From NCBI GenBank assembly GCA_021731145.1, contig JAKFXX010000005.1, forward strand, positions 18,821 to 82,820: a stretch of DNA of 64,000 bases, given 5' to 3'. The translations under genes and the position numbers were made by a program. Source of the stretch: Gammaproteobacteria bacterium (GTDB lineage Bacteria; Pseudomonadota; Gammaproteobacteria; Ga0077554; Ga007554). Every line of letters begins with the position of its first letter. Within the stretch, counting starts at the first letter, position 1. Shown piece by piece: positions 4,834-54,521 of the stretch. Below the pieces are notes generated by a model, which did no database searches, was not told the DNA's origin, and saw only the letters and a list, made by a program, of their open reading frames with translations.

Positions 4834-6912
4834 TTAGGCCGCGCTCTTGACATGATCAAGAGCCACTCTATTATTTGATGGTGAATATTGGTGGGACAAT
4901 CTGATAAGACCGGAAACATCCATTATCAGAGCTACGGTCCCATCCCCGAGAATTGTCGCACCGGATACCCCGTCCATTCTTTTGAAGTTTGTTTCCAGAC
5001 TTTTAATTACAACCTGCTGCTGCCCCAATAAATCATCAACGAATATTCCAGCTCTCTTTCCGTCGCCTTCTACGACGACAAGAAGTCCACCTGACAATTT
5101 TTTGTTTTTTGGAATGATATTGAATACTTCGTGAAGCCTGACGATAGGTATATATTCATTCCTAAGCTTGTAGACCTCAGCTCTTCCGGCAATGATATTT
5201 ACATTTTCTTCGTCAATCTGAAGCGACTCTATGATTGATACCAATGGGGTTATATATGTCTCATCACCAACACTGACAAGCTGCCCATCAAGTATTGCCA
5301 GCGTTAAAGGAAGGCGTACTGTAAAAGTCGTTCCTTTACCTTCAAAGGATGACACTTCTATTTTACCGCCAAGATCATTAATATTTCTTCGTACAACATC
5401 CATCCCAACACCACGACCGGAAACATCGCTGACTATTTCTGCGGTTGAAAATCCTGGCAAGAATATTAAATCGTTAATTTGTTCTTCGGACAGGGATTCA
5501 TCATCTTTGATGAGTCCTCGATCTTTTGCCTTTTTCGTAATTTTTTCCTTATTAAGGCCTCCCCCATCGTCTCGTATTTCTATAATAATGTTTCCACCCT
5601 TATGATAGGCATTAAGATGGAGTAACCCGGTTGATGGCTTACCTGCCGCCTTTCTATCGTGCGGCAGCTCAATTCCATGATCAATGGAGTTGCGCACCAA
5701 ATGTACAAGAGGGTCTCCTATCTTTTCCATTACCGTCTTGTCCATCTCCGTGCTTTCTCCAGACATCTTTAACTCTATTTCTTTACCAAGCTTCTTGCTA
5801 AGGTCATGAACCATGCGAGGGAAACGATTAAATGCAAAACTGATGGGCAACATGCGAATACGCATAACGCTTTCCTGGAGCTCTCTTGTATTACGCTCCA
5901 GTTGTGACAGCCCATCTCGCAACTTCATTATCTGGCTGTTATCAAAATCCTTTCCTAACTGGGCCAGCATGGATTGAATGATGACCAGCTCTCCGACCAT
6001 GTTGATAAGGTCATCAACCTTATCTATACTTACTCTAATAGAGCTATTTTCCACCGAACTTGAAGACACCCTCCTATCGGAAGAAAGCCTTTTTTCTTCA
6101 ATTTTAGGAAGATCATGAGAATGATCGTCTTTATTTTTTATGCCATCATAATGATCAGGATTATCATCATTACTTGCTATTAATTCTTTGTCTGATTCAT
6201 TTAATATTTGTGTTATTTTTAAATCACATTCGCCATCAACCCAATCGAATATTTCTGATATTTTTTCACTTGAAACATCTGTTTTTATAGATATTTTCCA
6301 TGAAAAATAGCACTCTTCTGGATTCATATCATTGAACCCTGTCATCTTTGAAGAGTCTACTTTTACTGACATATCGCCTAAAGAACTTAGCTCCCCGAAC
6401 ATCCTCACAGGGTCGTTCCCTGTTATGAGCATATTCACATACGGAATGAATTCTATATCCCATCCTTTACCGTGTTCTTTTTCTACTTTGGAATGTTGAT
6501 CAACGCATGTCCCGCCTTCTTTTTTATCAGAAAGGAGATTTTCTAGTTTTTTTTGCATATCAACCACTCTGGGAGCATCCACAGGAGATCCATCACGCGC
6601 CGATATAAGCAGGTCACGCAGACAATCCACTGACAGCAATAACAGGTTAACAGCCTCTTCGGTTACCTTTCTGCGTTGATCACGCATCTCATCAAGCAAT
6701 GTTTCCATTACATGAGTAAAACCTGCCACACTGGAGAATCCAAAGGTTGCCGCCCCTCCTTTTATGGAGTGCGCCGCGCGAAATATGGCATTCACCACAT
6801 CGACATCCGCCGTGCCAACATCAAGATTAAGGAGGCCTGACTCCATAACCCCAAGTCCTTCGAAGCTTTCTTCAAAGAACGTCTGGTGAAATTGAGACAT
6901 ATCTATCGACAT
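4834..6912 (-). CDS. cheA: chemotaxis histidine kinase CheA
   Basis: HPt domain (AAHSIKGGAATFGF), long acidic linker, dimerisation/HATPase region (GRGVGMDVV...GKGTTFTVRLPLTLAI), CheW-like C-terminal domain. Start set at MSIDMSQFHQTFFEE, 5 nt after the cheY stop. Confidence 0.9.
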   Translation of the reverse strand: MSIDMSQFHQTFFEESFEGLGVMESGLLNLDVGTADVDVVNAIFRAAHSIKGGAATFGFSSVAGFTHVMETLLDEMRDQRRKVTEEAVNLLLLSVDCLRDLLISARDGSPVDAPRVVDMQKKLENLLSDKKEGGTCVDQHSKVEKEHGKGWDIEFIPYVNMLITGNDPVRMFGELSSLGDMSVKVDSSKMTGFNDMNPEECYFSWKISIKTDVSSEKISEIFDWVDGECDLKITQILNESDKELIASNDDNPDHYDGIKNKDDHSHDLPKIEEKRLSSDRRVSSSSVENSSIRVSIDKVDDLINMVGELVIIQSMLAQLGKDFDNSQIMKLRDGLSQLERNTRELQESVMRIRMLPISFAFNRFPRMVHDLSKKLGKEIELKMSGESTEMDKTVMEKIGDPLVHLVRNSIDHGIELPHDRKAAGKPSTGLLHLNAYHKGGNIIIEIRDDGGGLNKEKITKKAKDRGLIKDDESLSEEQINDLIFLPGFSTAEIVSDVSGRGVGMDVVRRNINDLGGKIEVSSFEGKGTTFTVRLPLTLAILDGQLVSVGDETYITPLVSIIESLQIDEENVNIIAGRAEVYKLRNEYIPIVRLHEVFNIIPKNKKLSGGLLVVVEGDGKRAGIFVDDLLGQQQVVIKSLETNFKRMDGVSGATILGDGTVALIMDVSGLIRLSHQYSPSNNRVALDHVKSAA

Positions 6913-6916
6913 TGTT

Positions 6917-7279
6917 TTATCCCAATACTTTCTTGATGGTGGCAATAAGCTGCTCTGGATTAAACGGCTTCACCAGCCACCCAGTGGCCCCTGCCGCTTT
7001 GCCTTCATTCTTTTTATTATCAGCCGACTCTGTGGTCAGCATCAGCATTGGAGTGAATTTGTAGCTGGGAAGGGCTCTTAATTGGCGAATCAAGGTTATC
7101 CCATCCATATTCGGCATATTCACATCCGTCAAGACAAGATTCACCTTTTCTGTTTGTGCTTTTTTCAAGGCATCTTGCCCATCAACCGCTTCTACAACAT
7201 CAAATCCTGCCCCTTTAAGAGTGAAGGACACCATTTGACGCATGGATGCGGAATCATCAACCGCCAGTATCTTTGCCAT
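6917..7279 (-). CDS. cheY: chemotaxis response regulator CheY
   Basis: Single receiver domain (KILAVDDSASMRQMV...LVLTDVNMPNMDGI...KPF). Start set at MAKILAVDD. Confidence 0.85.
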   Translation of the reverse strand: MAKILAVDDSASMRQMVSFTLKGAGFDVVEAVDGQDALKKAQTEKVNLVLTDVNMPNMDGITLIRQLRALPSYKFTPMLMLTTESADNKKNEGKAAGATGWLVKPFNPEQLIATIKKVLG

Positions 7280-7324
7280 TTCTATTTCCCCGACCAACAA
7301 GAACTTACCATCTGAAATCCATAA

Positions 7325-7633
7325 TTATTTCAGCCTAAGTGCCTCATCAACTCCAATTAATCGTGCTGACAAACGCAGCTTCTCAGATGGATTATCCCAA
7401 GACACATCTACTCCTTTAAGGGATGCCTCCAAAAAGAATGAATACAGAACCTGCAATATTGCAGTATCTGCCCTCTCAACATTATTAGCTTCAATCATGA
7501 TTGGAGCGTTAATTTCCAATGATTTTTTTAATTTTTTATAGAATTCACTTGCGATTGATATATCCATCACATCTTCGCAGGATATTTTTTCAATCGTTCC
7601 TGATTGGCTTTTAATCATGGATCCCTCCGTCAT
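7325..7633 (-). CDS. STAS-domain protein (anti-sigma-factor-antagonist fold) at the head of the che operon
   Basis: 102 aa. The pattern ...IEANNVERADTAILQVLYSFFLEASLKGVDVSWDNPSEKL is typical of SpoIIAA/STAS proteins. AT-rich like the che genes. Confidence 0.55.
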   Translation of the reverse strand: MTEGSMIKSQSGTIEKISCEDVMDISIASEFYKKLKKSLEINAPIMIEANNVERADTAILQVLYSFFLEASLKGVDVSWDNPSEKLRLSARLIGVDEALRLK

Positions 7634-7722: not shown

Positions 7723-8166
7723 GCTGTTTTTACTTTTTTCTTTGATCTGACAGGCTCTTTCGTCCTCCGCGCTCTGCTCTCGCCGTGTTGCGGCGCGCAT
7801 ATCGTCCTGATGATACCTTTCAACAATACCGTTTAGTGCCTTAACCCTGCCACGCACCTGATGCCAGATGCGCAACTTGTCTTCAAATTCACGTTGGCCA
7901 TTTTCAACCAGCTTTTCCTGATAGGTGATCGCGGCATTCAAGTTGGCAAGGAATACCCGGTATTCATTCAACTGGATTGCAGAAATTCCGTTTTTCCCCC
8001 ATGTGCTGAAACGCGCCGTGTATTCTTCGCGGTAGGCGTTAAGATCAACGAGCCTGGCCTGCCGTTCCACAAGCATGTGCTTGCTTTCCGCCAACGCTCT
8101 GGCAGCATCACGTTCTCTGGTTTCCGACACCTTAATGACTGGCTTCAGGCGTTGTGATTTGGTCAT
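7720..8166 (-). CDS. fliJ: flagellar export chaperone FliJ
   Basis: Coiled-coil ~148-aa protein directly downstream of fliI. Start set at MTKSQRLKPVIKV. Confidence 0.7.
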   Translation of the reverse strand: MTKSQRLKPVIKVSETRERDAARALAESKHMLVERQARLVDLNAYREEYTARFSTWGKNGISAIQLNEYRVFLANLNAAITYQEKLVENGQREFEDKLRIWHQVRGRVKALNGIVERYHQDDMRAATRREQSAEDERACQIKEKSKNS

Positions 8167-8182
8167 AAGCAATCCAACAGTG

Positions 8183-8217
8183 CAATGTTGGGTCCGCTTC
8201 GCTTGACCCAACCTACA
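8183..8217. repeat. REP-like palindromic element (family A: GTTGGGTCC...GACCCAACCTACA), single hairpin
   Basis: Sequence caatgttgggtccgcttcgcttgacccaacctaca has an 8-bp stem gttgggtc/gacccaac. The same core recurs at ~13339, ~30020-30110 and ~59895-60090. Confidence 0.5.
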
Positions 8218-8238
8218 TTTAGCTACATTTCACTTTAG

Positions 8239-9603
8239 TTACTGCGCCCTTATCAGCATATTCAGCTCATTGATACTCTCTGCCAATGGCACAGGCTGGT
8301 GCATACCCTGATGGAGAAAGTCCAGGAGGCGCGGATGGTAGTCGATAGCCTGATCAATATTGGCGTCATTGCCGCGACTGTAAGCACCTATGGATATCAG
8401 GTCGCGGTTTTGTTGGTATGCGGAATAGAGCTGCTTGAAACGGCGCGCCGAGTTTTGGTGGACCGAGTCTGTAACTTCCGTCATGACACGGCTGATGGAT
8501 GCTTCGATATCAATCGCCGGATAGTGGCCCGCTTCCGCCAACTGGCGGCTTAATACCACATGGCCGTCGAGTATGGCGCGCGCGGCGTCGGCGATGGGGT
8601 CTTGCTGATCATCGCCTTCGGCAAGCACGGTGTAGAATGCCGTGATGGAACCCCCGGTTTCGTCGCTATTCCCGGCACGCTCCACCAGTTGCGGAAGCTT
8701 GGCAAATACTGAGGGCGGATAACCTTTGGTCGCAGGGGGCTCGCCTATCGCGAGCGCAATCTCGCGCTGGGCCTGGGCAAAGCGCGTCAGAGAATCCATC
8801 AACAGCAACACTTGCTTGCCCTGGTCGCGGAAATACTCGGCAATGCTGGTCGCCAGCATTGCACCGTGCAGACGCATCATCGGCGTGTGATCGGCCGGAG
8901 AGGCAACCACCACCGACCGCGCCATGCCCTCGGCGCCGAGGATGTTTTCAATAAATTCCTTCACTTCTCGGCCACGCTCGCCGATCAGTCCGACGACGAT
9001 GACATCGGCATTGGTGAAGCGCGTCATCATGCCCAGCAAGACGCTTTTGCCTACACCACTGCCGGCGAACAGGCCCATGCGCTGGCCGCGCCCCACTGTC
9101 AGCAAGGCGTTTATGGCGCGCACACCGACATCCAGGGGTTCACGTATCGGGCGGCGTGCCAGCGGGTTTAGAGGGCGCCCGGATAGTGGGATGGTTGCCT
9201 CGGTGCGTAACGGACCGCCACCATCCAGTGGCCGGCCGCCACCGTCCAGCACGCGGCCCAGCAATGCGTCGCCCACCGCCACATCATAGGCGCGCCGTAC
9301 CGGGATAACCCGCGAGTTGGGCATCAAACCACGGATTTCCCCGGTGGGCATAAGAAAGGTTTTGTTTCCGGAAAAGCCTACCACTTCGGTTTCCACCCGT
9401 TCGCCGCCCGGGCCTATCACCAGGCAACGCTCGCCTATTGCCGCCTGGCATCCCACTGCCTCCAGCGTCAATCCGACCATGCGGGTCAGTTTTCCTTCCA
9501 CGATGAGCGGCGGTGGTGAGTCAAGACGTGCGCGATGCCATGCTAAACGTTCGCGCCACGCCGCGCCGCGCTGCGCATCAATGACCGGGGTTTTCGTGTC
9601 CAC
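8239..9603 (-). CDS. fliI: flagellum-specific ATP synthase FliI
   Basis: Walker [15 protein letters not shown]1/T3SS ATPase family. Confidence 0.9.
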
Positions 9604-10237
9604 GCGCGCCTCCCAGTATGGATGCGGCGATTGCCGCTATGCGGCTGTCGAGACTGGCGTCAATCTGCGAGGTATCGGTCACAATGCGGCAGCCGCCCCG
9701 CGTCAATACCGGGTCTTCGACAATCCTCCAGATTTTATCGCCTTCCGTCAGTGACAGAGCGGCACGCACCAGTGCTGCATCTTCGGGATGAAGGTGCAGG
9801 TGAATATTGCGTGAAGCCAGCGGCAAACTTGCAACTCCCTCACGCACCACTGCGACAATCTGGCCTGGGTCTGTTTTGATCTCGCGCCGCACAATCTGAC
9901 GCGCGATGGATATGGACAGGGACACCAGTTCCTTTTCAACATCCTCGTCGAGCTGCGCCAATGGCTCGACTAGCGTGCTCAGCAACTGCTCCAGACGTTG
10001 CGCCTGCGCCTGCATTTCCGCCAGTCCTGCGATATGCCCTTTTTCGCGTCCTTGCTGCAATCCCTGGGCATATCCCTCTTCATAGGCTTGTTTCTGGATC
10101 TGTTCGATTTGGTCGGCCGTTGGGAGTGGTTTCACGGGAGCTGGGAGCACGTCCGCTTGCATAAGCGGTGCTTCCCAGCGCTGATAGGCGCTCAGATCAT
10201 CACCCGTGATGATTCTATTGGGAATGATTTTAGACAA
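9578..10237 (-). CDS. fliH: flagellar assembly protein FliH
   Basis: FliH-like sequence in the position between fliG and fliI ([17 protein letters not shown]...). Confidence 0.75.
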
Positions 10238-11240: not shown

Positions 11241-12939
11241 CGCTGGCCACCCAACCTTTAACAACTTGCGCAACACGCTTCGGATCTTGCCCTACCAGCG
11301 TTCTGGCAGCATCAAGCTGCGACTCATAATTTTGCGAGGGTGAGGATGCAGGCGCGGCAAGTTGTGCAGCGCCTTGTGCTGTTGAGCTCGAACCAGGCAG
11401 GCTAATGCGATCCTCCATCATGCCTGGTAATTCCTCCATGTGTGCCGTAGCGTATTGCGAAGCAACGCGTGAAGATTCCTTGCCCTTTTCCGCAAGACTA
11501 CGCAGCACCGGGCGCAGCACGCCGAATATCAGGAACAATACCGCCAAACCACCCAGCGCCTGTTTCGCCACATCCCAAATCCACGGCTGCTCCAGCAACT
11601 TGGGCTCCGGTATGGGCGTTTCCGCCGCCACTGTAAACGGGGCATTAATCACATTCACACTGTCACCGCGTTGCGTGCTGAAACCCACCGCTTCCTTGAC
11701 CAGCGAGGTGATGCGCGCAAGCTCTTCAGGCTTCAGCGCGGTACGCACCACTTCGCCTTTTTTATTCACTTTCTGGTGGTCATCGACAACCACAGCCACC
11801 GATAATTTACGCACCGAGCCACTCGGCATTTGGGTATGACTGATGACTTTGTCCAGCTCGAAATTGCGCGTCGCACGTTTGGTGCTGTTGAGCGGCGTCT
11901 GCGCGGCAGGCACCGTATTTGCGGCAGGCACGGCACCCTTGGCATTCGGCGCGGCAGGGCTGGGAGTGGACACTGTCCCTCCCGCCGGTGGTTGATTGGT
12001 CAATGCTCCCGGCACACCTGCCACTGCGGCGGCTCCCGCCGACTGCTCATCCAGCGTCTGCTCGCTGCGTATCGCCGGTTGATCGGGATTGTATGTTTCC
12101 TGTGTCTGCTCAGTGACACTGAAGTCCAGATCTGCCACTACCTGTGCCCGAACACCGCCAACGCCGGCAATGGGCGAAATGATGTCTTCGATGCGCTTGA
12201 TGTAGTTTTCCTCAAGCCGGCGCCGGTAATCGAACTGGCTGGCAGTGAGCTGCATGCTTTTAGATGTTTCCGGTGAAGTCAGCAGACGGCCCTTCTGGTC
12301 GATAACTGTCACATGCTCTGCATTCAGGTTGGGAACACTGGAGGCTAGCAAATGCACTATCGACGCGACCTGCCCTTCTTCAAGATTGCGCCCTGGATAG
12401 AGGTTGATCAGCACCGAGGCGCTGGGTGGTTCGCGGTTGCGAATAAACACCGACTGCTTGGGGATGGCCAAATGCACACGCGCTCCCTGCACATTGCCCA
12501 ATTCGGAAATCGTGCGCCCCAGCTCGCCCTCCAACGCATGCTGGTAGCGCGCGTTTTCCATGAACTGGCTGGTCCCGAAGGTGGGCTGATCGTTGAGCAA
12601 GGCAAAGCCTTCCACCGTCCCTTTGGGCAGCCCCTGCGAAGCCATCTTGAGGCGAGCTGTATGCACCTGATCGGCGGGCACCATCACAGCGCCGCTGTTT
12701 TCATCGACCTTGTAGACAATGCCATCCTTCTGCAAGGCATCGGCGATCTGGGTTGCGTCCTGCGCGGCAAGACCACTGTACAAGACGCGATAATTCGGCG
12801 CCTGAGACCACAAAACAACGGCTACGCCCAGCGCCACGCTGGCCGCCAGGCCAATCATCAATCCCATTTGGCGCAGCGCTGGCAGACCGCTAAAGCCGCG
12901 CATCTGGGCTGTCATGTTTTCTGCTTTTATTAGCGCCAT
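11233..12939 (-). CDS. fliF: flagellar MS-ring protein FliF
   Basis: 568 aa. N-terminal TM segment, FliF/YscJ region, proline/alanine-rich linker, C-terminal TM segment. Confidence 0.9.
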   Translation of the reverse strand: MALIKAENMTAQMRGFSGLPALRQMGLMIGLAASVALGVAVVLWSQAPNYRVLYSGLAAQDATQIADALQKDGIVYKVDENSGAVMVPADQVHTARLKMASQGLPKGTVEGFALLNDQPTFGTSQFMENARYQHALEGELGRTISELGNVQGARVHLAIPKQSVFIRNREPPSASVLINLYPGRNLEEGQVASIVHLLASSVPNLNAEHVTVIDQKGRLLTSPETSKSMQLTASQFDYRRRLEENYIKRIEDIISPIAGVGGVRAQVVADLDFSVTEQTQETYNPDQPAIRSEQTLDEQSAGAAAVAGVPGALTNQPPAGGTVSTPSPAAPNAKGAVPAANTVPAAQTPLNSTKRATRNFELDKVISHTQMPSGSVRKLSVAVVVDDHQKVNKKGEVVRTALKPEELARITSLVKEAVGFSTQRGDSVNVINAPFTVAAETPIPEPKLLEQPWIWDVAKQALGGLAVLFLIFGVLRPVLRSLAEKGKESSRVASQYATAHMEELPGMMEDRISLPGSSSTAQGAAQLAAPASSPSQNYESQLDAARTLVGQDPKRVAQVVKGWVASDA

Positions 12940-12997
12940 TTTTAAGTGTCTAGTTCTGAGTTTCGTGTTCGAGACGGGAGCTGTAGTGCCTTAATTA

Positions 12998-13324
12998 TTA
13001 AATCGGCATGCTCATGACTTCTTGATAGGCCGACACCAGCTTGTTGCGCACCTGCGTCATGGCCTGAAAGGAAAGACTCGACTTCTGTAATGCCACCATC
13101 ACTTCGGTAAGCTCGACCTTGGAGTCGCCCGCTTCAAAGGCCTGCGCCAAATTTCCGGCTTGCTGCTGTACATCGTTGACTTTCTCAATGGCGCTTTTAA
13201 ACAGGCTGGAAAAATCCGTGTTAGCCGCAGCATCTGTTTCCGTGACGGACGGCTTTGCCTGCGCCTGCGCAGCCATGGCGCGCATTTGCGCCAGTAATTG
13301 GGTTGTGTCTATGGTGTTGCTCAT
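12998..13324 (-). CDS. fliE: flagellar hook-basal body protein FliE
   Basis: 108 aa, FliE family (..FSSLFKSAIEKVNDVQQQA...). Confidence 0.85.
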   Translation of the reverse strand: MSNTIDTTQLLAQMRAMAAQAQAKPSVTETDAAANTDFSSLFKSAIEKVNDVQQQAGNLAQAFEAGDSKVELTEVMVALQKSSLSFQAMTQVRNKLVSAYQEVMSMPI

Positions 13325-13338
13325 AAGATCTCCTTATT

Positions 13339-13375
13339 GTTGGGGCCGGAGCAAAGCCCCTTGGCCCAACCTGCA
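13339..13375. repeat. diverged REP-like element (family A) in the fliE-fleR intergenic region
   Basis: Sequence gttggggccggagcaaagccccttggcccaacctgca. Compare gttgggtccggagcttgcgctccttgacccaacctaca at ~60055. Confidence 0.35.
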
Positions 13376-13383
13376 TTTACTTT

Positions 13384-13402
13384 CATGCACATTCCGCACC
13401 AG
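13384..13402 (-). promoter_or_regulatory. putative sigma54 promoter upstream of fliE
   Basis: Minus strand reads cTGGtgcggaatgtGCAtg, with GG and GC spaced as in TGGCAC-N5-TTGCA. Weak -24 match. Confidence 0.3.
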
Positions 13403-13407
13403 CCCCG

Positions 13408-14760
13408 TTAGTCAGGTATCGCCACGCCTGATTCGCGCAGTCGCGCCAATTTGTAACGCAATGTGCGCGGGCTAATGCCAAGCCGTTCTGCAACCTCCTT
13501 GCGATTGCCCCTTGCCGTATGTAATGCCTCGATAATCAGTTGTTGCTCATGGGACTTAAGGTCGTCATCGAGGCATGCTTCTTCACCTGGGGCTTCCTGG
13601 CTCGACGAGGTAAGCGGCGCGATACGTGGCGAGTCTGTTTCGAAGTGCAAATCGGCCGGATTAATTATTGCGCCCGATTTCATGATCAAGGCGCGCTGGA
13701 TCACGTTATCCAGCTCACGCACGTTGCCAGGCCAGGCATGCGCCCGCAGACGCTGCGCCGCTTCATCAGACAACACAGGCAAGGGAAACGCACCATGGCT
13801 ATGGCGCTCGATGAGGCGTCGCGCGATGGGAAGGATGTCTTCCTTGCGTTCGCGCAACGCGGGCAGAGGCAATGGAAACACATTCAAACGATAGAACAGA
13901 TCCTCACGGAAACGCCCAGCAGCGACTTCCGCACGCAGATTGCGGTTGGATGTCGCCAGTACGCGCACATTCAGCGGGATCATCTTCTGTGCGCCAAGAC
14001 GCTCCACCTCGCGCTCCTGCACTACACGCAACAATTTGGCCTGTAGCGCCAGACTCATCTCGGAGATTTCATCGAGTAATAATGTTCCATTTTGCGCTTG
14101 CTCGAATTTACCCGGCGCGGCATGGTACGCACCGGTGAATGCGCCTTTTTCATAGCCAAACAACACCGCTTCCAGCATGTTCTCTGGTATCGCCGCGCAG
14201 TTGATAGCGACAAACGGGCCTGACGCGCGATGGGAATGGCGGTGAATAAAACGGGCGAAAACCTCCTTTCCTGTGCCGCTTTCCCCGGTTATCAATACAG
14301 TGGCATCACTTCCCGCCACACGCTGCGCGAGCTCTGCCGCCTCGCGCGTGCGCGCGTCCACCGCTACCAGATCGGCGTCTTCTGTATCAGCGCCTGGTGA
14401 CGAGATATAGCGGCTTACCATCGAAATCAGCACTTCGGCTTCAAATGGCTTGACCATGTAATCCGCGGCGCCCTCGTGCATAGATTCGACTGCCTTGGGA
14501 ATCGATCCATGGGCAGTCATTAAAACCACCGGCATATCCGCGCGCCGGGCCTTGATGCGTTTGAGCAAGGTATGGCCATCCATGGGGCGCATCTGCACAT
14601 CGCTCAATACCATGCCCACTTCGCCCGACTCCAACCGGGCCAGTGCGGCCTGCCCGTCTTCCGCAACAATAACGCGATACCCCGCCAATTCCAGCGTATC
14701 GCACAGCGCCTCGCGTAACGCCGCATCGTCTTCTACAACCAGCACAGTCGCTGAACTCAT
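13408..14760 (-). CDS. fleR: sigma54-dependent response regulator FleR/FlrC (receiver + AAA+ + HTH)
   Basis: Receiver domain (VLVVEDDAALREAL...VLSDVQMRPMDG), sigma54-interaction domain ([12 protein letters not shown]... GAFTGA), C-terminal Fis-type HTH. Confidence 0.85.
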   Translation of the reverse strand: MSSATVLVVEDDAALREALCDTLELAGYRVIVAEDGQAALARLESGEVGMVLSDVQMRPMDGHTLLKRIKARRADMPVVLMTAHGSIPKAVESMHEGAADYMVKPFEAEVLISMVSRYISSPGADTEDADLVAVDARTREAAELAQRVAGSDATVLITGESGTGKEVFARFIHRHSHRASGPFVAINCAAIPENMLEAVLFGYEKGAFTGAYHAAPGKFEQAQNGTLLLDEISEMSLALQAKLLRVVQEREVERLGAQKMIPLNVRVLATSNRNLRAEVAAGRFREDLFYRLNVFPLPLPALRERKEDILPIARRLIERHSHGAFPLPVLSDEAAQRLRAHAWPGNVRELDNVIQRALIMKSGAIINPADLHFETDSPRIAPLTSSSQEAPGEEACLDDDLKSHEQQLIIEALHTARGNRKEVAERLGISPRTLRYKLARLRESGVAIPD

Positions 14761-40052: not shown

Positions 40053-40766
40053 ATGCCATACCGTACATATTTTTGGATAGCTATACTTTTCGCAGCATTC
40101 ACATCACTGCCACAGCAAGCTCGTTCCGAAACGTATCAATCACACGATTCGCTGCGCGAAACCGCCAGAACTTTTGTGCAGCAACAAATTCAAAGCACGT
40201 CTGCAACGCCATATATAGAGGTTGGCATCCTGGACACCCGACTACGCCTTCCGGTTTGCGCAGACAAACCGGAGGCTTTCCTGCCACCCGGCAGCCGTAT
40301 CCTGGGATCATCCAGCGTTGGGATCCGTTGTCATAGCCCTAAACCCTGGTCATTGTATGTGCCGGTCACTGTCAAGATTTTTGCGCCGGTCTTGGTCGCC
40401 AGCCACGCACTGAACCGCGGCAGCCAGATAACCGCCCAGGATTTCCAGACCGCCGAACTGAACATCGCCGCCCTTTCTGGCGGTTACCTGAGCATCCCCG
40501 AACAAATCCTCGGCATGACACTGAAGCGCTCAATAGACGCCGGTGCCGTATACACTCCCGCCATGCTTGAGGCTCCGAACATGGTCCGCCGGGGACAACA
40601 AGTCACCCTTCTCGCGGAAATCGCAGGAATCGAGGTGCGCATGGCCGGCAAGGCGCTCATGGACGGCAGCGCCGGGGCCTTAATCCAGGTCCGCAATCTC
40701 GCATCACAACGGGTTATTGAGGGAACGGTAATTGCTGAGGGGATAGTAAAAGTGACGGGGAATTGA
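40053..40766 (+). CDS. flgA: flagellar P-ring chaperone FlgA
   Basis: FlgA family with SAF-like C-terminal region, divergent from the cheV-flg operon. Start set at MPYRTYFWIAILFAAF (signal peptide). The track ORF begins at 40002. Confidence 0.7.
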   Translation: MPYRTYFWIAILFAAFTSLPQQARSETYQSHDSLRETARTFVQQQIQSTSATPYIEVGILDTRLRLPVCADKPEAFLPPGSRILGSSSVGIRCHSPKPWSLYVPVTVKIFAPVLVASHALNRGSQITAQDFQTAELNIAALSGGYLSIPEQILGMTLKRSIDAGAVYTPAMLEAPNMVRRGQQVTLLAEIAGIEVRMAGKALMDGSAGALIQVRNLASQRVIEGTVIAEGIVKVTGN

Positions 40767-40798
40767 CCACTTTAATTGCTGTGCATGTGCTTTTAATT

Positions 40799-40825
40799 TA
40801 AAGTAATGCCTGAATCTGCCGCTAT
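40799..40825 (+). promoter_or_regulatory. sigma28 promoter of flgM-flgN
   Basis: TAAA-gtaatgcctgaatct(15)-GCCGCTAT, located 31 nt upstream of the flgM ATG. Confidence 0.45.
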
Positions 40826-40856
40826 CCTATGCACAGCATCTGAAGAGGTATAGAAC

Positions 40857-42503: not shown

Positions 42504-42579
<76 letters not shown>

Positions 42580-42619: not shown

Positions 42620-42696
42620 GCCCCGGTAGCTCAGCTGGATAGAGCATCCCCCTCCTAAGGGGAAGGTCACACGTTCAAATCGTGTTCGGGGCACCA
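42620..42696 (+). tRNA. tRNA-Arg (anticodon CCU); its 3' half is the integration site of the downstream element
   Basis: 77 nt with cloverleaf and encoded CCA. Anticodon loop ctCCTaa. The 3' 45 nt (plus 4 nt beyond) are repeated at 49879-49927. Confidence 0.85.
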
Positions 42697-46707: not shown

Positions 46708-46827
46708 TTTGTAATCCTCGTTTATGTTGATGAGGATTACTACTTTAACCATGCGTTAAAAGTTTTAAAGAGACTGATTAGGCTTGGCTGAAACCCGCGC
46801 CGCTATTGGGCTATAGGGTGGTTTTGT

Positions 46828-46862
46828 GTTAAAACTTTCGCTGAAAGTATGAAAGTTTTAAC
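46828..46862. promoter_or_regulatory. 12-bp perfect inverted repeat (GTTAAAACTTTC-N11-GAAAGTTTTAAC) over the stop codon of ORF 46858-47445, with a third half-site ~70 nt away
   Basis: Arms gttaaaactttc / gaaagttttaac. A further aaaagttttaaag lies at ~46750 in the alpA promoter region. Not followed by a T-tract, so more likely an operator than a terminator. Confidence 0.35.
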
Positions 46863-47445
46863 TCAGAACTACGTTGGCAAACGCTTTCAATATCGTTTCA
46901 CTACCAAAGTTTTTTCTATTGCCACGCTTTTTAACGCCAGCATTACTTAGCGACTGGACAACTTTATCAGCCAATATATTCCGCTTCGTAAGCAAGGTTG
47001 TATCGTCCCTGATAAGTTGACGCGCAAAGTGACGGGCCGGGGTGTACCAAGGTTGTTCTGGCGCGGGGTCGTTGGGGTCTACGATTTCCCATGGTTTCGG
47101 TGCTACGGCCTGTATCACTGGCACGGCTTCAACCTTCCCGGTAGTGGATTTGGTGACGGTTGAAAGAGTGTTGCCTGGGTGGACATCAGTGCCCGCCGTG
47201 ACTCCATGCAATTCGCATAATTCTCGTGAAATGAAATAGCCATTTTTGATAGCCCATTCAATCGCAGTACCCGCCGGGAACCATAGACCCAATTCATCCT
47301 GTATCACCAGCTCAAGGGTTCTCCCATCTGAGACTTCATTACCTGAGCCACTGATAACTGTTAGCAGTGTCGTTGGCCTCCATATTGTCTCTTGGCCAAG
47401 CCACAGTGAAGCGGATTTTAGAGCTGTAATCATATTCACATCCAT
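46858..47445 (-). CDS. hypothetical protein (195 aa), no recognisable domain; sits between the TA pair and alpA in the satellite hotspot position
   Basis: MDVNMITALKSASLWLGQETIWRP...GYFISRELCELHGVTAGTDVHPGNT...PEQPWYTPARHFARQLIRDDTTLLTKRNILADKVV... No signal peptide. Confidence 0.5.
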   Translation of the reverse strand: MDVNMITALKSASLWLGQETIWRPTTLLTVISGSGNEVSDGRTLELVIQDELGLWFPAGTAIEWAIKNGYFISRELCELHGVTAGTDVHPGNTLSTVTKSTTGKVEAVPVIQAVAPKPWEIVDPNDPAPEQPWYTPARHFARQLIRDDTTLLTKRNILADKVVQSLSNAGVKKRGNRKNFGSETILKAFANVVLS

Positions 47446-49704: not shown

Positions 49705-49878
49705 GATGCGCCCTTTTTTGTAACCAATTTGTAACCACGTTTTCAGTATATCGCGGCATACCTATCAACACAACAAACAAGGGTATTTTTAATAACTAAT
49801 TGTTTTAATTGGAAACATGATTTTTGCGGAATGGCAATCAACGGTAAAGTATGCTTATTTTTTAAGCATTTTCACGCA

Positions 49879-49927
49879 CTCCTAAGGGGAAGGTCGTACG
49901 TTCAAATCGTATCCGGGGCACCAATAA
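49879..49927 (+). repeat. attR: 49-nt direct repeat of the tRNA-Arg 3' end; overlaps the last 8 codons and stop of the hydrogenase protease gene
   Basis: ctcctaaggggaaggtcgtacgttcaaatcgtatccggggcaccaataa. Positions 49902-49927 encode ...IIGAPDTI* on the minus strand. Confidence 0.8.
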
Positions 49928-50387
49928 TCGGCAAAAGTTCTTCTTTGATCCGCTCCACCAACATGGGCAACGCCCCGGCAGTTTCGGGCGTTAAAGTGTC
50001 GCATGGCTCAAGGTTGCACGCCTCCACGCCGTAGAGCACCAGTCTCGCTGGCAGCATCCCCAGCGTTCCACCCAGCGCCAGGCTTTCGGCCACACCAAAA
50101 CCATGGCTGGAGAGCAACGCCGCCTCCATCTCGATCTCTTCATCCTGCAAGCGGCGGATTGTGCCGGGCACGGCGCCGCTGCGCATGGCATCAATGAGAA
50201 TGACGTGGGCGGCGCCCTCCATGAGCATGAGCAATCCGCTGGCCGGCCGGTCACAGGTTTGCACACTCACCAGACCTTGCGGAAAACGCCCCAGCAACCC
50301 CGATCCGCGGATAGCCTCGACCGCCTCCCAACCAAGCTGATCGTCACCGAAGGGCGAACCGATGCCGATGATGCGGATCGGCGTCAT
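49902..50387 (-). CDS. NiFe-hydrogenase maturation endopeptidase (HoxW/HycI/HybD family)
   Basis: 161 aa. IRIIGIGSPFGDDQLGWEA...VILIDAM is the hydrogenase protease signature. ATGA-type overlap with the large-subunit gene. Confidence 0.8.
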   Translation of the reverse strand: MTPIRIIGIGSPFGDDQLGWEAVEAIRGSGLLGRFPQGLVSVQTCDRPASGLLMLMEGAAHVILIDAMRSGAVPGTIRRLQDEEIEMEAALLSSHGFGVAESLALGGTLGMLPARLVLYGVEACNLEPCDTLTPETAGALPMLVERIKEELLPIIGAPDTI

Positions 50388-51682
50388 GGGCGGCTTACGG
50401 CAAGCTTTAGAAAATGCGTAGCGCAGGAAATGCAGGGGTCGTAGTTTCTGATCACCGTCTCGGCGCGGCGGCGCAGCTCTTCATCGCTGCTGGCAAGCCC
50501 GAAAGCATCCAGTGACCGGCGCAGATCCTCTTCGATGCGCGCCTGATTCTGGCTGGTGGGCGGCACGATGCGTGCGCTTGTGATCAGACCCTGCTCGTCG
50601 GTTTCATAGCGGTGCCAGAGTATGCCGCGCGGCGCCTCGGTGCAACCATACCCAACACCCGCGCGCGGCACTACGGGAACATAAGGTGCAAATGGATATT
50701 CATAGCCTTCCAGCAATCGCACTGCCTCGCTCAGGGCATAGTAAACCTCGATGGCGCGCGCCACAATGCTGTGGAACATGTTGCTACTGGGGAAGGCAAT
50801 GCCCGTCGCCTGTACAGCGCGCGTCACCTGTTCCGGAAGTTTGTCCAGATTGAGATTGAGGCGTGCCAGCGGCCCCACCAGATAAGGCTGGTCATGCAAC
50901 AAGCTGTGCAACGCAGTGGAATGCGGCACCTGGAATTCGCGGAAGTGATGCTGGTATTCGGCAACCGGAATATCCAGACCAGCGCTTGAGACGATGCGGC
51001 CTTCGTTCATGGGGTATTCATCGGTGTGGCGCAGGGCGACGCTGGTAAAGGTCTGGTCGTCCCGAGGCAGGTTCAGCGAGGCCGTCCAGGCGACTAGCGC
51101 CTCGGCATCGGGCAAGGCGCAGCGTAGTTTTTCCAGTAGCGCACTCACGTCTTGCTGATCCGGCGCACGGTAAAATCCGCCGACGCGCACGCCCACTGGA
51201 TGCACCGAGCGCCCGCCGAACAGCCGGATAATGGCGTTGCCCAACCCTTGCAGGCGCAGGCCACGGCGCACCTCATCAGGATAATCGCGCGCCATGGCGA
51301 TGGCGTTGTCATAGCCCAGAAAATCCGGCGCGGCCAACAGGTGAATATGCAGGCTGTGGCTTTCCATCCACTCGCCACAATACAACACCCGGCGCATGGC
51401 GCGTACCCAAGAACCGGGCTGCGCACCGAAAATGCCCTCCAGGGCATGCACCGCGCTCATCTGGTAGGCCACCGGGCAGATGCCGCAAATGCGCGCCACC
51501 ATGTCCGGCACTTCATTGTAATCGCGCCCTTCCAGAAACTTCTCGAACAGACGCGGCGGTTCGTAGATACGCAGCTTCAGGTCGGCGATGTGACCGTCGC
51601 GGATGGCGATGTCGAGCGCGCCCTCGCCTTCTACACGCGCCAGCACCGGCACATGGATGTTGATTTCACGGTTTTCCGCCAT
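50384..51682 (-). CDS. NiFe hydrogenase large (alpha) subunit, cytoplasmic group 3 type
   Basis: N-terminal RICGICPVAY and C-terminal DPCISCATH nickel-binding motifs. Start set at MAENREINIHVPVLARVEGEG. The track ORF begins at 51733. Confidence 0.85.
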   Translation of the reverse strand: MAENREINIHVPVLARVEGEGALDIAIRDGHIADLKLRIYEPPRLFEKFLEGRDYNEVPDMVARICGICPVAYQMSAVHALEGIFGAQPGSWVRAMRRVLYCGEWMESHSLHIHLLAAPDFLGYDNAIAMARDYPDEVRRGLRLQGLGNAIIRLFGGRSVHPVGVRVGGFYRAPDQQDVSALLEKLRCALPDAEALVAWTASLNLPRDDQTFTSVALRHTDEYPMNEGRIVSSAGLDIPVAEYQHHFREFQVPHSTALHSLLHDQPYLVGPLARLNLNLDKLPEQVTRAVQATGIAFPSSNMFHSIVARAIEVYYALSEAVRLLEGYEYPFAPYVPVVPRAGVGYGCTEAPRGILWHRYETDEQGLITSARIVPPTSQNQARIEEDLRRSLDAFGLASSDEELRRRAETVIRNYDPCISCATHFLKLAVSRP

Positions 51683-52460
51683 GCGCCTCTCCCTTGGCGC
51701 GCAACCCTGCTTCATGGAAGGCGGGTGCGGCATTATTGATAAACAGGAAGCGCCTGGCGATATCGTCCGGCGCTAACCCCAGCCCCTCCAGGCGCCGCGC
51801 AATGCCTAACGTGTTGGGGTTCTCGGCAGGGCCGTAACAGGCATAGCAATCCCGCCCGAAAGCCGGACACAACGCACCGCAGCCGGTACGCGTCACCGGC
51901 CCCATACAGGGGATGCCCTTGGCAACCATCACGCACACGGTTTGGTTACGTTTGCATTCCATGCACACTTTATCCTGCTCCTCCACTGGCACCACACCGA
52001 AGAGCAATGCCCGCAACGCGCCCAGCACCTGACGGCTGCTGACCGGACAGCCCCACAGCTCCAGATCGACCTTGATGTGGCTGGCGATGGACGTCACCGT
52101 GGCCAGGCTGTGGATATATTCAGGCTGGGCGTATACCGCAGCGATCCATTTGCCACCATCCGCCAGATTACGCAGCGCCTGTACGCCACCCGCAGTTGCA
52201 CAGGCTCCCAAAGTCACCACAAAACGGCTATTCGCACGCACCTGTTGGATACGCGCTACCTCGTCAGGCGTAGAGATACTGCCTTCCACGAAAGCGATAT
52301 CCACTTTGGCGTGCGGTTCTACCGGACCCGCTTCGGCAAAATGCACGAAATCGACCCGCTCCGCCACGCGCAGCAGATCCTCGCCGAGATTCAAAAACGC
52401 GAGCTGGCATCCATCGCAGGAGCTGAATTTGTGAACTGCAACCTTGGGTTTCCCGCTCAT
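51666..52460 (-). CDS. NiFe hydrogenase small (delta) subunit
   Basis: Cys pattern of the NuoB-like small subunit (SCDGCQ...GACATAGG...WGCP...CMEC...GCGALCP). Confidence 0.8.
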   Translation of the reverse strand: MSGKPKVAVHKFSSCDGCQLAFLNLGEDLLRVAERVDFVHFAEAGPVEPHAKVDIAFVEGSISTPDEVARIQQVRANSRFVVTLGACATAGGVQALRNLADGGKWIAAVYAQPEYIHSLATVTSIASHIKVDLELWGCPVSSRQVLGALRALLFGVVPVEEQDKVCMECKRNQTVCVMVAKGIPCMGPVTRTGCGALCPAFGRDCYACYGPAENPNTLGIARRLEGLGLAPDDIARRFLFINNAAPAFHEAGLRAKGEAHGGKP

Positions 52461-52461
52461 C

Positions 52462-53412
52462 TCAAAAGCCTCTTACACCCAGCAGTTCTTTAATCTGGGA
52501 ATAGGCAAACACCGGCCCCTGTCGACAGATAAAACTCGTGCCAAACATGCAATGCCCGCATTGGCCGATGGCGCATTGCATGTTGCGTTCCATGCTTAGA
52601 TAGATGCTGTCCTCAGCAAGTCCACGCTCCGTCAGGTTACGCACCGCCGCGCGCATCATGCCTTCCGGCCCGCACATCATCGCCACGGTGCGCTCCGGCA
52701 TAATCTCCATTTGATCGAATACCTCCGTCACCAAACCGACATGCCACGGCCAAAGCGGACCGCCATGATCGGCAGCGAGCAGCACTTGGGTATCGGGCAG
52801 GGTATTCCAATAGGCATAACGTTCACGCCAGATCAGCTCCTCGGCATGCTTTACTCCCTGAATCACCGTGAGCCTGCCAAACCGCTCGCGGCGCATGATG
52901 ATGTAATTGATCACAGCCACCACCGGCGCGCAACCCAAACCACCCGTGACGACCACAATGTCCTTACCCTCTGCCTCCGCCGTGCAGGGATGCACAAGTG
53001 CTGGTCGCTTCCAGCATCCTGCTTCTGGCGACACTTGTGCATCCCTGCACGGCGCAGGAGGCACGATGCCAGGAGCGGCCGCCAGCGGCCAACCGCGCCC
53101 ATACGGCCCACGCAGACCCAGCCGCTCACCCACATTGAGGCGGGAAAGCCCCTCCGTCACCCGCCCCACGGCACGGATGGTGTGCCCGAGCAGGTTTGTA
53201 TCCTGCGGATCGGACGCAATCGAAATCGGTATTTCGCCTACCCCGTACAGATACACCATGTTGAATTGACCCGGCGCAAAGCGATAAGCCTTGCGTGCTT
53301 CATCGTCAACAAGGCGCAGGCGCAAAGTAAAAATCGTGGGCGACTCCTGGATGCGCTCAACGACTTCCGCCTCCCAGGGCAAATGAGGATTCATGTTGCC
53401 ACCCCGCTGCAA
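52462..53412 (-). CDS. hydrogenase gamma subunit (FAD/NAD(P)-binding oxidoreductase with C-terminal 2Fe-2S motif)
   Basis: FNR-like fold (RFAPGQFNMV...GPYG...VTGGLGCAPV) and C-terminal CAIGQCGHCMFG. Contains a ~24-codon insertion encoded by a perfect palindrome. Confidence 0.75.
   Translation of the reverse strand: MQRGGNMNPHLPWEAEVVERIQESPTIFTLRLRLVDDEARKAYRFAPGQFNMVYLYGVGEIPISIASDPQDTNLLGHTIRAVGRVTEGLSRLNVGERLGLRGPYGRGWPLAAAPGIVPPAPCRDAQVSPEAGCWKRPALVHPCTAEAEGKDIVVVTGGLGCAPVVAVINYIIMRRERFGRLTVIQGVKHAEELIWRERYAYWNTLPDTQVLLAADHGGPLWPWHVGLVTEVFDQMEIMPERTVAMMCGPEGMMRAAVRNLTERGLAEDSIYLSMERNMQCAIGQCGHCMFGTSFICRQGPVFAYSQIKELLGVRGF
52978..53054. repeat. perfect 23-bp inverted repeat with 31-nt spacer, embedded in-frame in the gamma-subunit gene
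   Basis: Left arm ccgccgtgcagggatgcacaagtg, right arm cacttgtgcatccctgcacggcg (RC-identical). Encodes PCRDAQV-SPEAGCWKRP-ALVHPCT between the conserved GPYG and VTGGLG motifs. Confidence 0.6.
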
Positions 53413-54521
53413 ATGGCCGTCGCCTCCTCAGTAATGTCGATACCCGTCGGACACCAGGTAACACAACGCCCACACCCCACACAGCCGCTGCGTCCGTATT
53501 GCTCGTGCCAACTGCCAAGCTTGTGGGTCAGCCACTGGCGATAGCGTGTCCGGGTATCGCTGCGCACCACGACACCATGAATATAACTGTGCCCACGGGT
53601 AAAACAGGAATCCCACTCGCGCGAATGTTCTGCATTGTCGCCATCGAGACTGGGTTGCTCGATCGCACTGGAACAAAAACAGGTAGGACAAACCGATGTG
53701 CAATTGCCGCATGACAGACAGCGCTCCGCCACCTCTTCCCAGCGCGGATGCTCAAGATTGGCAAACAAGGCATCGCGTAAATTACGTCCCGGCAGGCGGC
53801 GGGACTGCGAACGGGCGGCATGGGCAATCTCATCCTCCGCCTGCGCAATCTGTTCCGCTGCCGCCACTGAACATTCAAGCGCATCGAGCAACACCTTACC
53901 GCGCACACTCCCCGCCTCCGCGACAAAACCGTCATCAAGCTCAGAAAGTGCAATATCAAAACCACGCGTGGCGCGCGGCCCGTCGCCCGTCGAAACGCAA
54001 AAGCACGTCGCAGCCGGATGGCTACAATGAACCGCCACGACAAAAAGATTGTCCCGCCGTTGGGCATAAGCAGGGTCGGGATAGGCACCACCTAAAAAAT
54101 GTTGATCCTGCAAGGCAAGCGCCGCCAAATCGCAGGCACGCACGCCGATCACCGCAATCGGTTTGACATCCGGTTGCACTTCACGAAAAGTAAGGCGTCC
54201 TTTGTCATCACGCACCACACGCCATAAAGCCTCGCGCGGCGCAAACAGAAAGGGCTTGAGCGCCTGCGGCCCATTGGCCCAAGCGAACTGGCGCGGGCTC
54301 GATACCTGCTCAGCACTATATTCACCCGGCGCCTGTCGATCATGCACCCCCTGCGGCAGCGCAGCCGTCTCAGCCAAGGTTTCGTAGACGATCACGCCTT
54401 CCTTGAGCCGTGGACCGACACAGAGGAAACCACTGCCGGTCAGCGCATCAAGCACACGCTGAAGCGCATCGCGCGGTAGAAATACCCGGCTTACATCAGG
54501 CGCACCCTCCAGCATCGTCAC
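53391..54521 (-). CDS. hydrogenase beta subunit (4Fe-4S dicluster protein, sulfhydrogenase HydB-like)
   Basis: CxxCxxCxxxCP motifs (CLSCGNCTSVCPTCFC; CVGCGRCVTWCPTGI). First gene of the four-subunit operon. Confidence 0.7.
   Translation of the reverse strand: MTMLEGAPDVSRVFLPRDALQRVLDALTGSGFLCVGPRLKEGVIVYETLAETAALPQGVHDRQAPGEYSAEQVSSPRQFAWANGPQALKPFLFAPREALWRVVRDDKGRLTFREVQPDVKPIAVIGVRACDLAALALQDQHFLGGAYPDPAYAQRRDNLFVVAVHCSHPAATCFCVSTGDGPRATRGFDIALSELDDGFVAEAGSVRGKVLLDALECSVAAAEQIAQAEDEIAHAARSQSRRLPGRNLRDALFANLEHPRWEEVAERCLSCGNCTSVCPTCFCSSAIEQPSLDGDNAEHSREWDSCFTRGHSYIHGVVVRSDTRTRYRQWLTHKLGSWHEQYGRSGCVGCGRCVTWCPTGIDITEEATAICSGVAT

Follow-up and report, generated by a model that had tools for sequence, protein, structure and literature searches.

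A perfect palindrome in a hydrogenase gamma-subunit gene as the very probable junction of two nested, REP-like mobile units

Within a 64,000-nt stretch of gammaproteobacterial DNA (contig JAKFXX010000005.1 of assembly GCA_021731145.1; hereafter the window), the gene for a predicted hydrogenase gamma subunit contains a perfect 23-bp inverted repeat, which is very probably the junction of two nested, oppositely oriented copies of a 51-nt, non-autonomous mobile unit resembling repetitive extragenic palindromic (REP) sequences. The arms at 52978–53000 (CGCCGTGCAGGGATGCACAAGTG) and 53032–53054 (CACTTGTGCATCCCTGCACGGCG), given on the + strand, are exact reverse complements of 23 nt each with a 31-nt spacer, as an earlier, sequence-only reading of the window had noticed, although the first arm string quoted there had one leading c too many. 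The same reading considered such a palindrome improbable by chance, in line with which neither arm recurs in the window, even allowing three mismatches, and shuffled sequences are expected to yield no copy. A repeat finder lengthens the arms to 27 nt at 96%, and no other inverted repeat of this quality is present in the window. RNA folding, which that reading had proposed as a check, predicts a very stable structure (−75 kcal/mol, z = −8.7). The insert containing the palindrome appears to be selfish DNA of a kind already known from intragenic REPs and Rickettsia palindromic elements (RPEs), belonging to a particular family that is apparently undescribed.

An empty, half-filled and filled site in the gamma-subunit gene

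Alignments with orthologous gamma subunits, at both the DNA and protein levels, confirmed an insertion between the motifs GPYGRGWPL and VVVTGGLG, where the sequence-only reading had placed it in the FNR-like fold. Its size had been underestimated at ~24 residues (~72 nt); compared with orthologues, it comprises 34 residues (AAAPGIVPPAPCRDAQVSPEAGCWKRPALVHPCT), or 102 nt, with a placement that is ambiguous by up to 5 nt owing to a flanking CCGCC repeat. Nearly all of the best 120 homologues listed are 274–296 residues long, the closest of them (P0002–P0016) having 276 residues and 96% protein identity, and P0001 (310 residues, carried by locus L001) is the only one of the 120 with the extra segment. 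Seven empty alleles, that of locus L002 and six from other assemblies and metagenomes, are exactly 102 nt shorter at ~93% DNA identity, which shows that orthologues do not all share the same loop length. The empty site of L002 reads ...CCTCCGCC/AACGG on the + strand, and in the alignment of the window, L001 and L002 the insertion is bounded by a direct repeat reading CCGCC on this strand and GGCGG on the gene strand.

Two further assemblies carry the insert in whole or in part. The independent assembly containing L001 (GCA_947085925.1) has the same 102-nt insert with a single substitution. An intermediate allele was found within the 90% cluster of P0001, namely P0121 (293 residues; L125, GCA_947085955.1), which carries only AAAPGIVPPAALVHPCT. 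Across the site, the DNA of L125 reads GGCCGCTCCTGGCATCGTGCCTCCCG followed directly by CAGCACTTGTGCATCCCTGCAC, and it is at this junction, between CCTCC(C/T)G and CAGCAC, that the window and L001 have 51 more nucleotides (CGCC...GCGAC). The inner unit is accordingly present in the window and L001 and missing from L125, in which the segments corresponding to 52978–53003 and 53055–53079 are contiguous. The one-unit allele of L125 therefore shows the insert to consist of two nested units. The gamma subunit lengthens from 276 residues (empty) to 293 (one antisense unit) and 310 (a sense unit nested inside it), and all insert-bearing assemblies (window, L001 and L125) retain the reading frame.

Each part of the palindrome can be assigned to one of these units (Table 1). 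The first segment of the outer unit, which matches the family consensus described below and codes for ...ALVHPCT, supplies the left arm, while the inner unit, coding for PCRDAQVSPEAGCWKRP, provides the right arm and most of the spacer. The second segment of the outer unit is a diverged B module, 23/28 identical to consensus B when compared by eye and the same in L001 and L125; its peptide parallels the AASGILPLA encoded by single antisense units in other proteins. The encoded peptide is nested in the same manner as the DNA (AAPGIVPPA + PCRDAQVSPEAGCWKRP + ALVHPCT), as comparison with the peptides of single antisense units (AASGILPLAALVHPCTA) and single sense units (PPCRDAQVSPEAGCRKRP) elsewhere shows.

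According to this model, an antisense unit would have inserted at CCGCC in the codons of the linker between the FAD and NAD domains, adding 17 residues, a state kept in L125. A sense unit would then have entered this first one at the border between its B and A modules, adding another 17 residues and producing the state of the window and L001. Two A modules would thereby have come to face each other, with the inner B module as the 31-nt spacer, and the resulting palindrome would be perfect because module A is almost invariant in the family. The gene would have survived both events since each unit is 17 codons long and free of stops, and since the 34 residues would land in a disordered interdomain loop.

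The product of the host gene has an FNR-like fold that binds FAD and NAD(P), and a 2Fe-2S domain at its C-terminus (Pfam NAD_binding_1, PF00175, and DHODB_Fe-S_bind, PF10418). Neighbouring genes of the operon match Fer4_22, Oxidored_q6 and NiFeSe_Hases, as expected for beta (4Fe-4S), delta (small) and alpha (NiFe large) subunits, and HycI and HypA/HypF, in keeping with an operon that includes a maturation protease, are present at the syntenic loci. Among solved structures, the closest match is the sulfhydrogenase I gamma subunit of Pyrococcus furiosus (9nez_C, E = 9e-42). Together, the domains, the neighbours and this match identify the gene as the gamma (diaphorase) subunit of a group 3b [NiFe]-hydrogenase. 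Its ATG at 53394 is the start common to all orthologues and overlaps the beta-subunit stop (ATGA), which suggests translational coupling; the NCBI protein P0122 (316 residues) and the mechanical open reading frame (ORF) begin at an upstream TTG (53412). Between the window and L001, the ratio of non-synonymous to synonymous differences (pN/pS) in the gene is 0.09, which points to continuing purifying selection.

When aligned to the P. furiosus subunit, the 34 residues fall between chain residues 115 and 117, a site that in the solved chain is a short linker joining the FAD-binding barrel to the NAD(P)-binding domain. An AlphaFold model built from a 79-sequence alignment (predicted template-modelling score 0.77) shows both domains modelled confidently and matches the fold of 9nf0_C with a template-modelling (TM) score of 0.79. 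Residues 107–138, between strands 91–98 and 145–151, have a predicted local distance difference test score (pLDDT) of ~30–40, below 50 throughout, and the insert is hence predicted to form a disordered surface loop in the interdomain linker. The three cysteines of the insert are present because TGC codons occur in the GTGCA/TGCAC palindrome. Predicted peptides from the loop are PCRDAQVSPEAGCWK and PALVHPCTAEAEGK.

Table 1. Positions of the insert, its parts and the surrounding genes in the window.
Feature	Position	Strand	Remarks
Whole insertion, 102 nt / 34 codons	52978..53079		Absent from close orthologues; DNA and protein alignments
Left arm of the perfect 23-bp inverted repeat	52978..53000		A module of outer unit
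Right arm of the perfect 23-bp inverted repeat	53032..53054		A module of inner unit
Outer unit, first segment: CGCC tag, A hairpin (GTGCA-GGGA-TGCAC), AAGTG, CTG	52978..53003	+ (antisense to gene)	
Inner unit, 51 nt, CGCCGTGCAGGGATGCACAAGTGTCGCCAGAAGCAGGATGCTGGAAGCGAC	53004..53054	- (sense to gene)	nhmmer E = 3e-12
Outer unit, second segment: diverged B module, CAGGAGGCACGATGCCAGGAGCGGC	53055..53079	+	Encodes AAPGIVPP(A) on the gene strand
Left 5-nt direct repeat CCGCC	52977..52981		Overlaps the unit's own CGCC tag
Right 5-nt direct repeat CCGCC	53079..53083		Native CGCC = 53080-53083
Gamma (diaphorase) subunit gene, FNR-like FAD/NAD(P) + 2Fe-2S	52462..53394	-	310 residues including insert
Beta subunit gene (Fer4_22), same operon	53391..54521	-	Uninterrupted in the window

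A dispersed family of codon-length hairpin units

A scan with a 19-mer from the arm (GTGCAGGGATGCACAAGTG), covering one genome per species, returned at least 116 matching loci where chance predicts a handful. The majority of the matches listed come from metagenome-assembled genomes (MAGs) of Candidatus (Ca.) Thiodiazotropha, Sedimenticola, Acidiferrobacterales, Thiohalomonadales and unclassified Gammaproteobacteria. The unit is thus spread among many uncultured Gammaproteobacteria of the sulfur-oxidiser type. What these loci share is a module of ~51 nt with a CGNC tag, a near-invariant hairpin A (GTGCA-GGGA-TGCAC), AAGT and a two-tier hairpin B, laid out as G(T/C)CGC ... inner hairpin ... GCG(A/G)C. 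Among 37 sequences, the outer stem of B covaries between UA (20) and CG (16), and in this register 99.5% of cells are paired, versus 10–45% when the register is slid. Its inner hairpin occurs in several versions (GGCA/TGCC, GCACA/TGTGC, GCGCA/TGCGC, GGGCA/TGCCC and GGCCA/TGGCC), nearly always with an (N)GGA loop. Folded as single-stranded DNA, the unit adopts precisely hairpins A and B (−12.1 kcal/mol). Its 51 nt correspond to 17 codons without a stop in any of the six frames, which is why the reading frame is kept upon insertion; we rejected the idea that this openness is a special adaptation, as 10.5% of shuffled units are equally open.

Many copies per MAG are present in several lineages, with 2–6 per 9–21 kb in the sister genomes. 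No Rfam covariance model scored above the gathering threshold in the region, in the whole window (two tRNA genes apart) or in eight family loci, where only sub-threshold matches to generic hairpins (miRNA precursors) were seen, and the sequence strings of the unit occur in no paper of the literature searched; the family appears to be undescribed. A plasmid collection contained no match to the unit. Two scans of metagenomes for composite junctions gave no match and four chance matches, respectively, and the composite is therefore not demonstrated to be a multi-copy element itself. One ordinary unit with the tag CGAT was found on a 5.6-kb contig classed as viral in IMG/VR (L132, 2752–2805), the sole match on a viral contig.

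In-frame copies are not confined to the gamma subunit. The beta-subunit gene of L001 carries an independent 51-nt unit (L001 6162–6213) that adds GRFRHPASGDTRASLHS, and the matching site in the window (~53638/53639, within ~53630–53648) is empty. This loop, which separates the two Fe-S cluster motifs of the beta subunit, is a hot spot for insertions, with no module in the window and L002, one in L001 and four nested modules in L125 (region 6005–7331), where they include two related types of 51 and 48 nt and the beta subunit reaches 441 residues versus 374. In L126 (1–663), the same loop is scrambled and native residues are deleted. In other MAGs, units lie inside Pfam-recognised proteins including ETF, PolA (DNA polymerase I), Pan_kinase (CoaX, type III pantothenate kinase), Chorismate_bind (PabB-like), a HisKA histidine kinase, GpsA, QueC and Radical_SAM (QueE-like), and EtfB is among the unit-bearing proteins of relatives. 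In total, at least ten different proteins contain in-frame copies, in both orientations and several frames, and the same peptides (PPCRDAQVSPEAGCRKRP, ...ALVHPCTA) recur in PabB-like, QueC, GpsA, EtfB and kinase proteins. Sense and antisense copies in genes are roughly equal in number, which argues against an RNA-level role for those copies. Another MAG (L011) has a comparable B'-A-B-A' nest in a histidine-kinase gene, in this case with a third unit inside A'.

Related elements were seen beside the family. In Ca. Thiodiazotropha, the A/B module forms part of a longer intergenic element, ~230 nt in length and highly repeated, with ...CCAACTGATCTTTTTAGG at its end (L007 ~2400–2620 and ~60 other loci among L003–L118). 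A role of these long elements as mobile 5' untranslated regions was rejected, as a same-strand ORF follows in 27/54 cases, compared with 50% at random in this crude test. At least two further module types have the same plan of a CGNC tag, an NGGA-loop hairpin and a second hairpin: one of 51 nt (GCCA-GGGA-TGGC / CCGCCATGGATGGCGG), and one of 48 nt (CGAC-(T/G)GCA-TGGA-TGC(A/C)-GGAGGTAGAG...) that inserts into loops of the first. They were found at L125 ~6850–7090, L017 2016–2200, L001 12214–12330 and 12810–12922, and L040 819–900. GGA occurs in all hairpin loops of the unit (GGGA, AGGA/TGGA, often with a 3' internal loop RGGA), at a spacing of ~26 nt; such hairpins resemble those bound by CsrA/RsmA-type proteins, a likeness that may serve as a lead only, the genic copies being without strand bias.

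The 48–51-nt modules might together belong to one undescribed superfamily of hairpin elements, codon-length, stop-free and self-nesting, that spans several sulfur-oxidiser-type orders of Gammaproteobacteria, is mobilised without a flanking REP-associated tyrosine transposase (RAYT) or target duplication, lands in hairpin loops and genes, and is kept invariant through a host or element factor binding GGA loops. We regard this broader proposal as speculative and rather doubtful; if it were true, the modules would be more than passive junk.

Elsewhere in the window, two imperfect inverted repeats, at 46818–46872 (22-nt arms at 86%, 11-nt gap) and 40766–40849 (21-nt arms at 81%, 42-nt gap), are AT-richer and unrelated to the unit. 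Two adjoining tRNA genes on the + strand (42504–42576 and 42620–42693) are the sole matches in the window to Rfam at gathering score.

Insert invariance, mobilisation and competing explanations

Several observations weigh against two nested insertions of selfish DNA as a complete account. The insert differs at 1/102 positions between the window and L001, versus 7.3% of sites in the gamma gene and a synonymous divergence (pS) of 0.24 (P = 3e-11 when compared with pS, 0.004 when compared with the gene mean); along 7.4 kb of aligned DNA, just 2.9% of 102-nt windows reach such similarity. Outside the insert, the three carriers show 52–61 differences per 831 nt of the gene among themselves and 46–63 to non-carriers, and they form no clade in the gene tree. 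Such invariance is not predicted for an old, purely neutral insertion; it needs either constraint on the insert or a particular recombination history. The search for mobilisation machinery was likewise unproductive: a phmmer search with E. coli RayT as query, covering every ORF of the window and of ~120 loci, gave one match, in L040, and when the ORFs lying within 2.5 kb of units were clustered, no transposase recurred, the only groups being paralogous host families with translated repeat fused to them. The mobilising enzyme is hence putative, none having been identified in the loci searched. Junction overlaps are also inconsistent, measuring 0–1 nt for the nested event, 3–5 nt (CGCC/CCGCC) for both genic events and 10 nt for one that involves a related module. 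Finally, the window, which alone was covered by this search, contains no further copy of the unit beyond the hydrogenase site.

Two explanations of the invariance remain. The insert may show a shallow clonal frame whose flanks were overwritten by imports ending at the heterology, or it may be under constraint at the nucleotide level. A recent large recombination tract common to the carriers was rejected, as single-nucleotide polymorphisms within ~25 nt of the insert on both sides differ and the nearest ones are not carrier-specific. Around the operon, L001 (~7900–10000) and L002 (~11350–13450) are identical for more than 2 kb in the hydrogenase delta/alpha/hycI region (window 49875–52000), they are 6–10% divergent immediately upstream, and near hypA the relationship is reversed, between the window and L001. 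Such patterns indicate that these lineages are probably recombination mosaics, or else that the MAGs are chimeric.

Constraint could mean that the hairpin, after co-option, serves a function at the RNA or DNA level, for example as an RNase III or other processing site, an interdomain translational pause or a binding site for a GGA-loop protein, which would explain its near-invariance. The very stable stem, the place of the insert among the 2.9% most conserved windows, the beta-subunit unit that L001 and L125 have in common (identical at 51/51 positions amid differing nearby flanks) and the family-wide retention of GGA loops while stems covary are all consistent with this. Seven closely related genomes, however, have the operon without the insert and one has half of it, neither a terminator-like or promoter-like signal nor an Rfam family was detected, and genic copies are about equally sense and antisense; the low divergence is otherwise explicable in recombination mosaics, in which a carrier cannot recombine across the site with an empty allele. 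Co-option is hence unlikely, the regulatory mRNA hairpin suggested by the sequence-only reading does not agree with these alleles and orientations, and we found no support here for a regulatory or catalytic role of the palindrome. It is highly improbable that selection instead acts on the loop as a protein feature, whose three cysteines would form an additional redox or metal site, or which would be a docking loop of the diaphorase subunit. Although the frame is maintained in a gene under apparent purifying selection, with no non-synonymous difference in the insert between the window and L001, the cysteines derive from the palindrome's TGC codons, the same peptides occur in unrelated proteins, namely PabB-like, QueC, GpsA, EtfB and kinase proteins, and the segment is predicted to be disordered (pLDDT ~30). 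The sequence-only reading had also asked whether the cysteine-rich loop is conserved in close relatives; among the best 120 orthologues listed it is missing from almost all, occurring only in the P0001 cluster. We infer that the loop is functionally tolerated rather than useful.

Perfect arms are typical of quasi-palindrome correction, and CCGCC microhomology is present at the borders, as would be expected if the palindrome were a local product of replication or repair, through template switching or inverted duplication. Neither arm comes from local sequence, however, both match a repeat found at 116 or more loci in other genomes, and the intermediate allele is one complete unit without a palindrome, which makes such an origin extremely improbable and also speaks against the recombination footprint that had been considered. 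The probability of an assembly or chimera artefact, a concern raised at the outset, is close to negligible. The sequences do come from MAGs, in which assembler errors can create palindromes; but the insert recurs with one substitution in the independent L001 assembly, its half-size allele is present in a third, and all are in frame. Among the explanations offered by the sequence-only reading, an in-frame insertion of a REP or a MITE (a miniature transposable element with inverted repeats) is borne out by the dispersed family and the empty site in close orthologues, but the insert is no classical MITE and consists of two nested units rather than one palindromic element.

As for how two nested units could have moved, a fixed target-site duplication was ruled out by four pairs of empty and filled sites. 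The ends of the unit (CGCCGTG... / ...AGCGAC) are not inverted repeats, the 23-bp repeat arising only from nesting, and nested copies sit in or right beside loops of host hairpins. Because of these three features, mobilisation in trans by an enzyme acting on hairpins of single-stranded DNA appears plausible, by analogy with the HUH/Y1 transposases of REP/RAYT and IS200/IS605 systems. No TnpA/TnpB partner was found in the fetched loci. The RAYT homologue of L040 (3925–4299, -; E = 5e-12) is truncated and followed by a classical GTAG REP doublet of its own (GTAGGGCGGCTTTAGCC...GGCTAAAGCCGCCCCTAC); beside the unit described here, the genome thus contains a canonical REP/RAYT system that is distinct from it.

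Relation to known repeats and wider meaning

Intragenic REPs have been described by Di Nocera, De Gregorio & Rocco 2013 (PMC3733652), occurring in frame within ORFs as singles and as dimers that encode 20–30 residues. In that study, CGTC-tagged REPs were concluded to have no dedicated transposase, and their superfamily was defined by an unpaired terminal CGTC (or TGTC/CCTC), an 8–9-bp stem with complementary A/T at positions 1–2, a 4–5-nt loop and a CCA tail. Like these, the present units are small hairpin repeats, rich in GC, that bear an unpaired tetranucleotide tag on one side, and like REP dimers, they pair in inverted orientation, can fold into one large stem-loop and in some cases lie wholly inside ORFs. 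The 4-nt GGGA loop fits as well. Unlike CGTC REPs, however, the unit has a tag that always reads CGNC and is mostly CGCC, CGAC or CGAT, with exact CGTC in a minority of copies (for example, some of those in Thiodiazotropha), and its 51 nt include a second, covarying two-tier hairpin. Because its stem is only 5 bp (GTGCA/TGCAC), does not start with A/T and has no CCA tail, the unit does not belong to CGTC-1 to CGTC-4 as defined in that study. The pair in the gamma gene is moreover nested (B'-[A-B]-A'), not head-to-head or tail-to-tail.

REPIN-RAYT systems (Bertels & Rainey 2011, PMC3116915) and the E. coli REPs and bacterial interspersed mosaic elements (BIMEs) are likewise non-autonomous hairpin repeats that form long hairpins as inverted pairs and persist in lineages. 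The unit differs from REPIN-RAYT in that it has no GTAG (GYAG/GTRG) tag, its border being CGCC, CGAC, CGAT or CGTC, in that no unit-flanked RAYT was found in the loci searched, and in that copies often lie inside genes, not only between them. MITEs that extend ORFs, such as the QMITEs of Coxiella (PMC5896051; see also the reviews by Delihas, PMC3184786), are also small, non-autonomous repeats that are read through and add peptide segments; none of the hallmarks of MITEs, such as terminal inverted repeats (15–30 bp), target-site duplications of fixed length (here 0–1, 3–5 and 10 nt) or a recognisable parent insertion sequence, was seen for the unit.

A parallel in behaviour is provided by RPEs, reportedly described by Ogata et al. 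in 2000, which are likewise palindromic selfish repeats that lie in frame in many housekeeping genes and add surface segments compatible with the fold. This likeness is one of behaviour only; the unit occurs in free-living and symbiotic Gammaproteobacteria rather than obligate intracellular Alphaproteobacteria, has 51 nt versus ~100–150 nt (RPE-1) and is prominent in nesting within itself. Elements of the IS200/IS605 group move as single-stranded DNA by 'peel and paste', using a Y1 TnpA, and insert without duplication 3' of a tetra- or pentanucleotide. Their palindrome-associated transposable elements (PATEs) resemble the unit in having two similar small hairpins and no terminal inverted repeats; the absence of target duplication at the cleanest (nested) event and the constant short motif CGNC at one border are further likenesses. 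The unit is, on the other hand, much smaller than known PATEs, and the loci yielded neither TnpA nor TnpB.

To our knowledge, in-frame repeat insertion has mostly been documented in Rickettsia and a few REP-rich species, and the units described here extend this behaviour to uncultured environmental and symbiotic Gammaproteobacteria. What looked like an anomaly in a conserved redox enzyme would be ordinary selfish DNA, and its annotation as a regulatory element or a metal-binding motif would be unwarranted. The repeat family, more than the single palindrome, should be of interest to mobile-DNA specialists. At one site, three sister genomes keep an empty, a single-unit and a nested state, and the neighbouring gene has 0, 1 and 4 modules, making this allele series an unusually clean natural record of how tiny repeats remodel protein loops.

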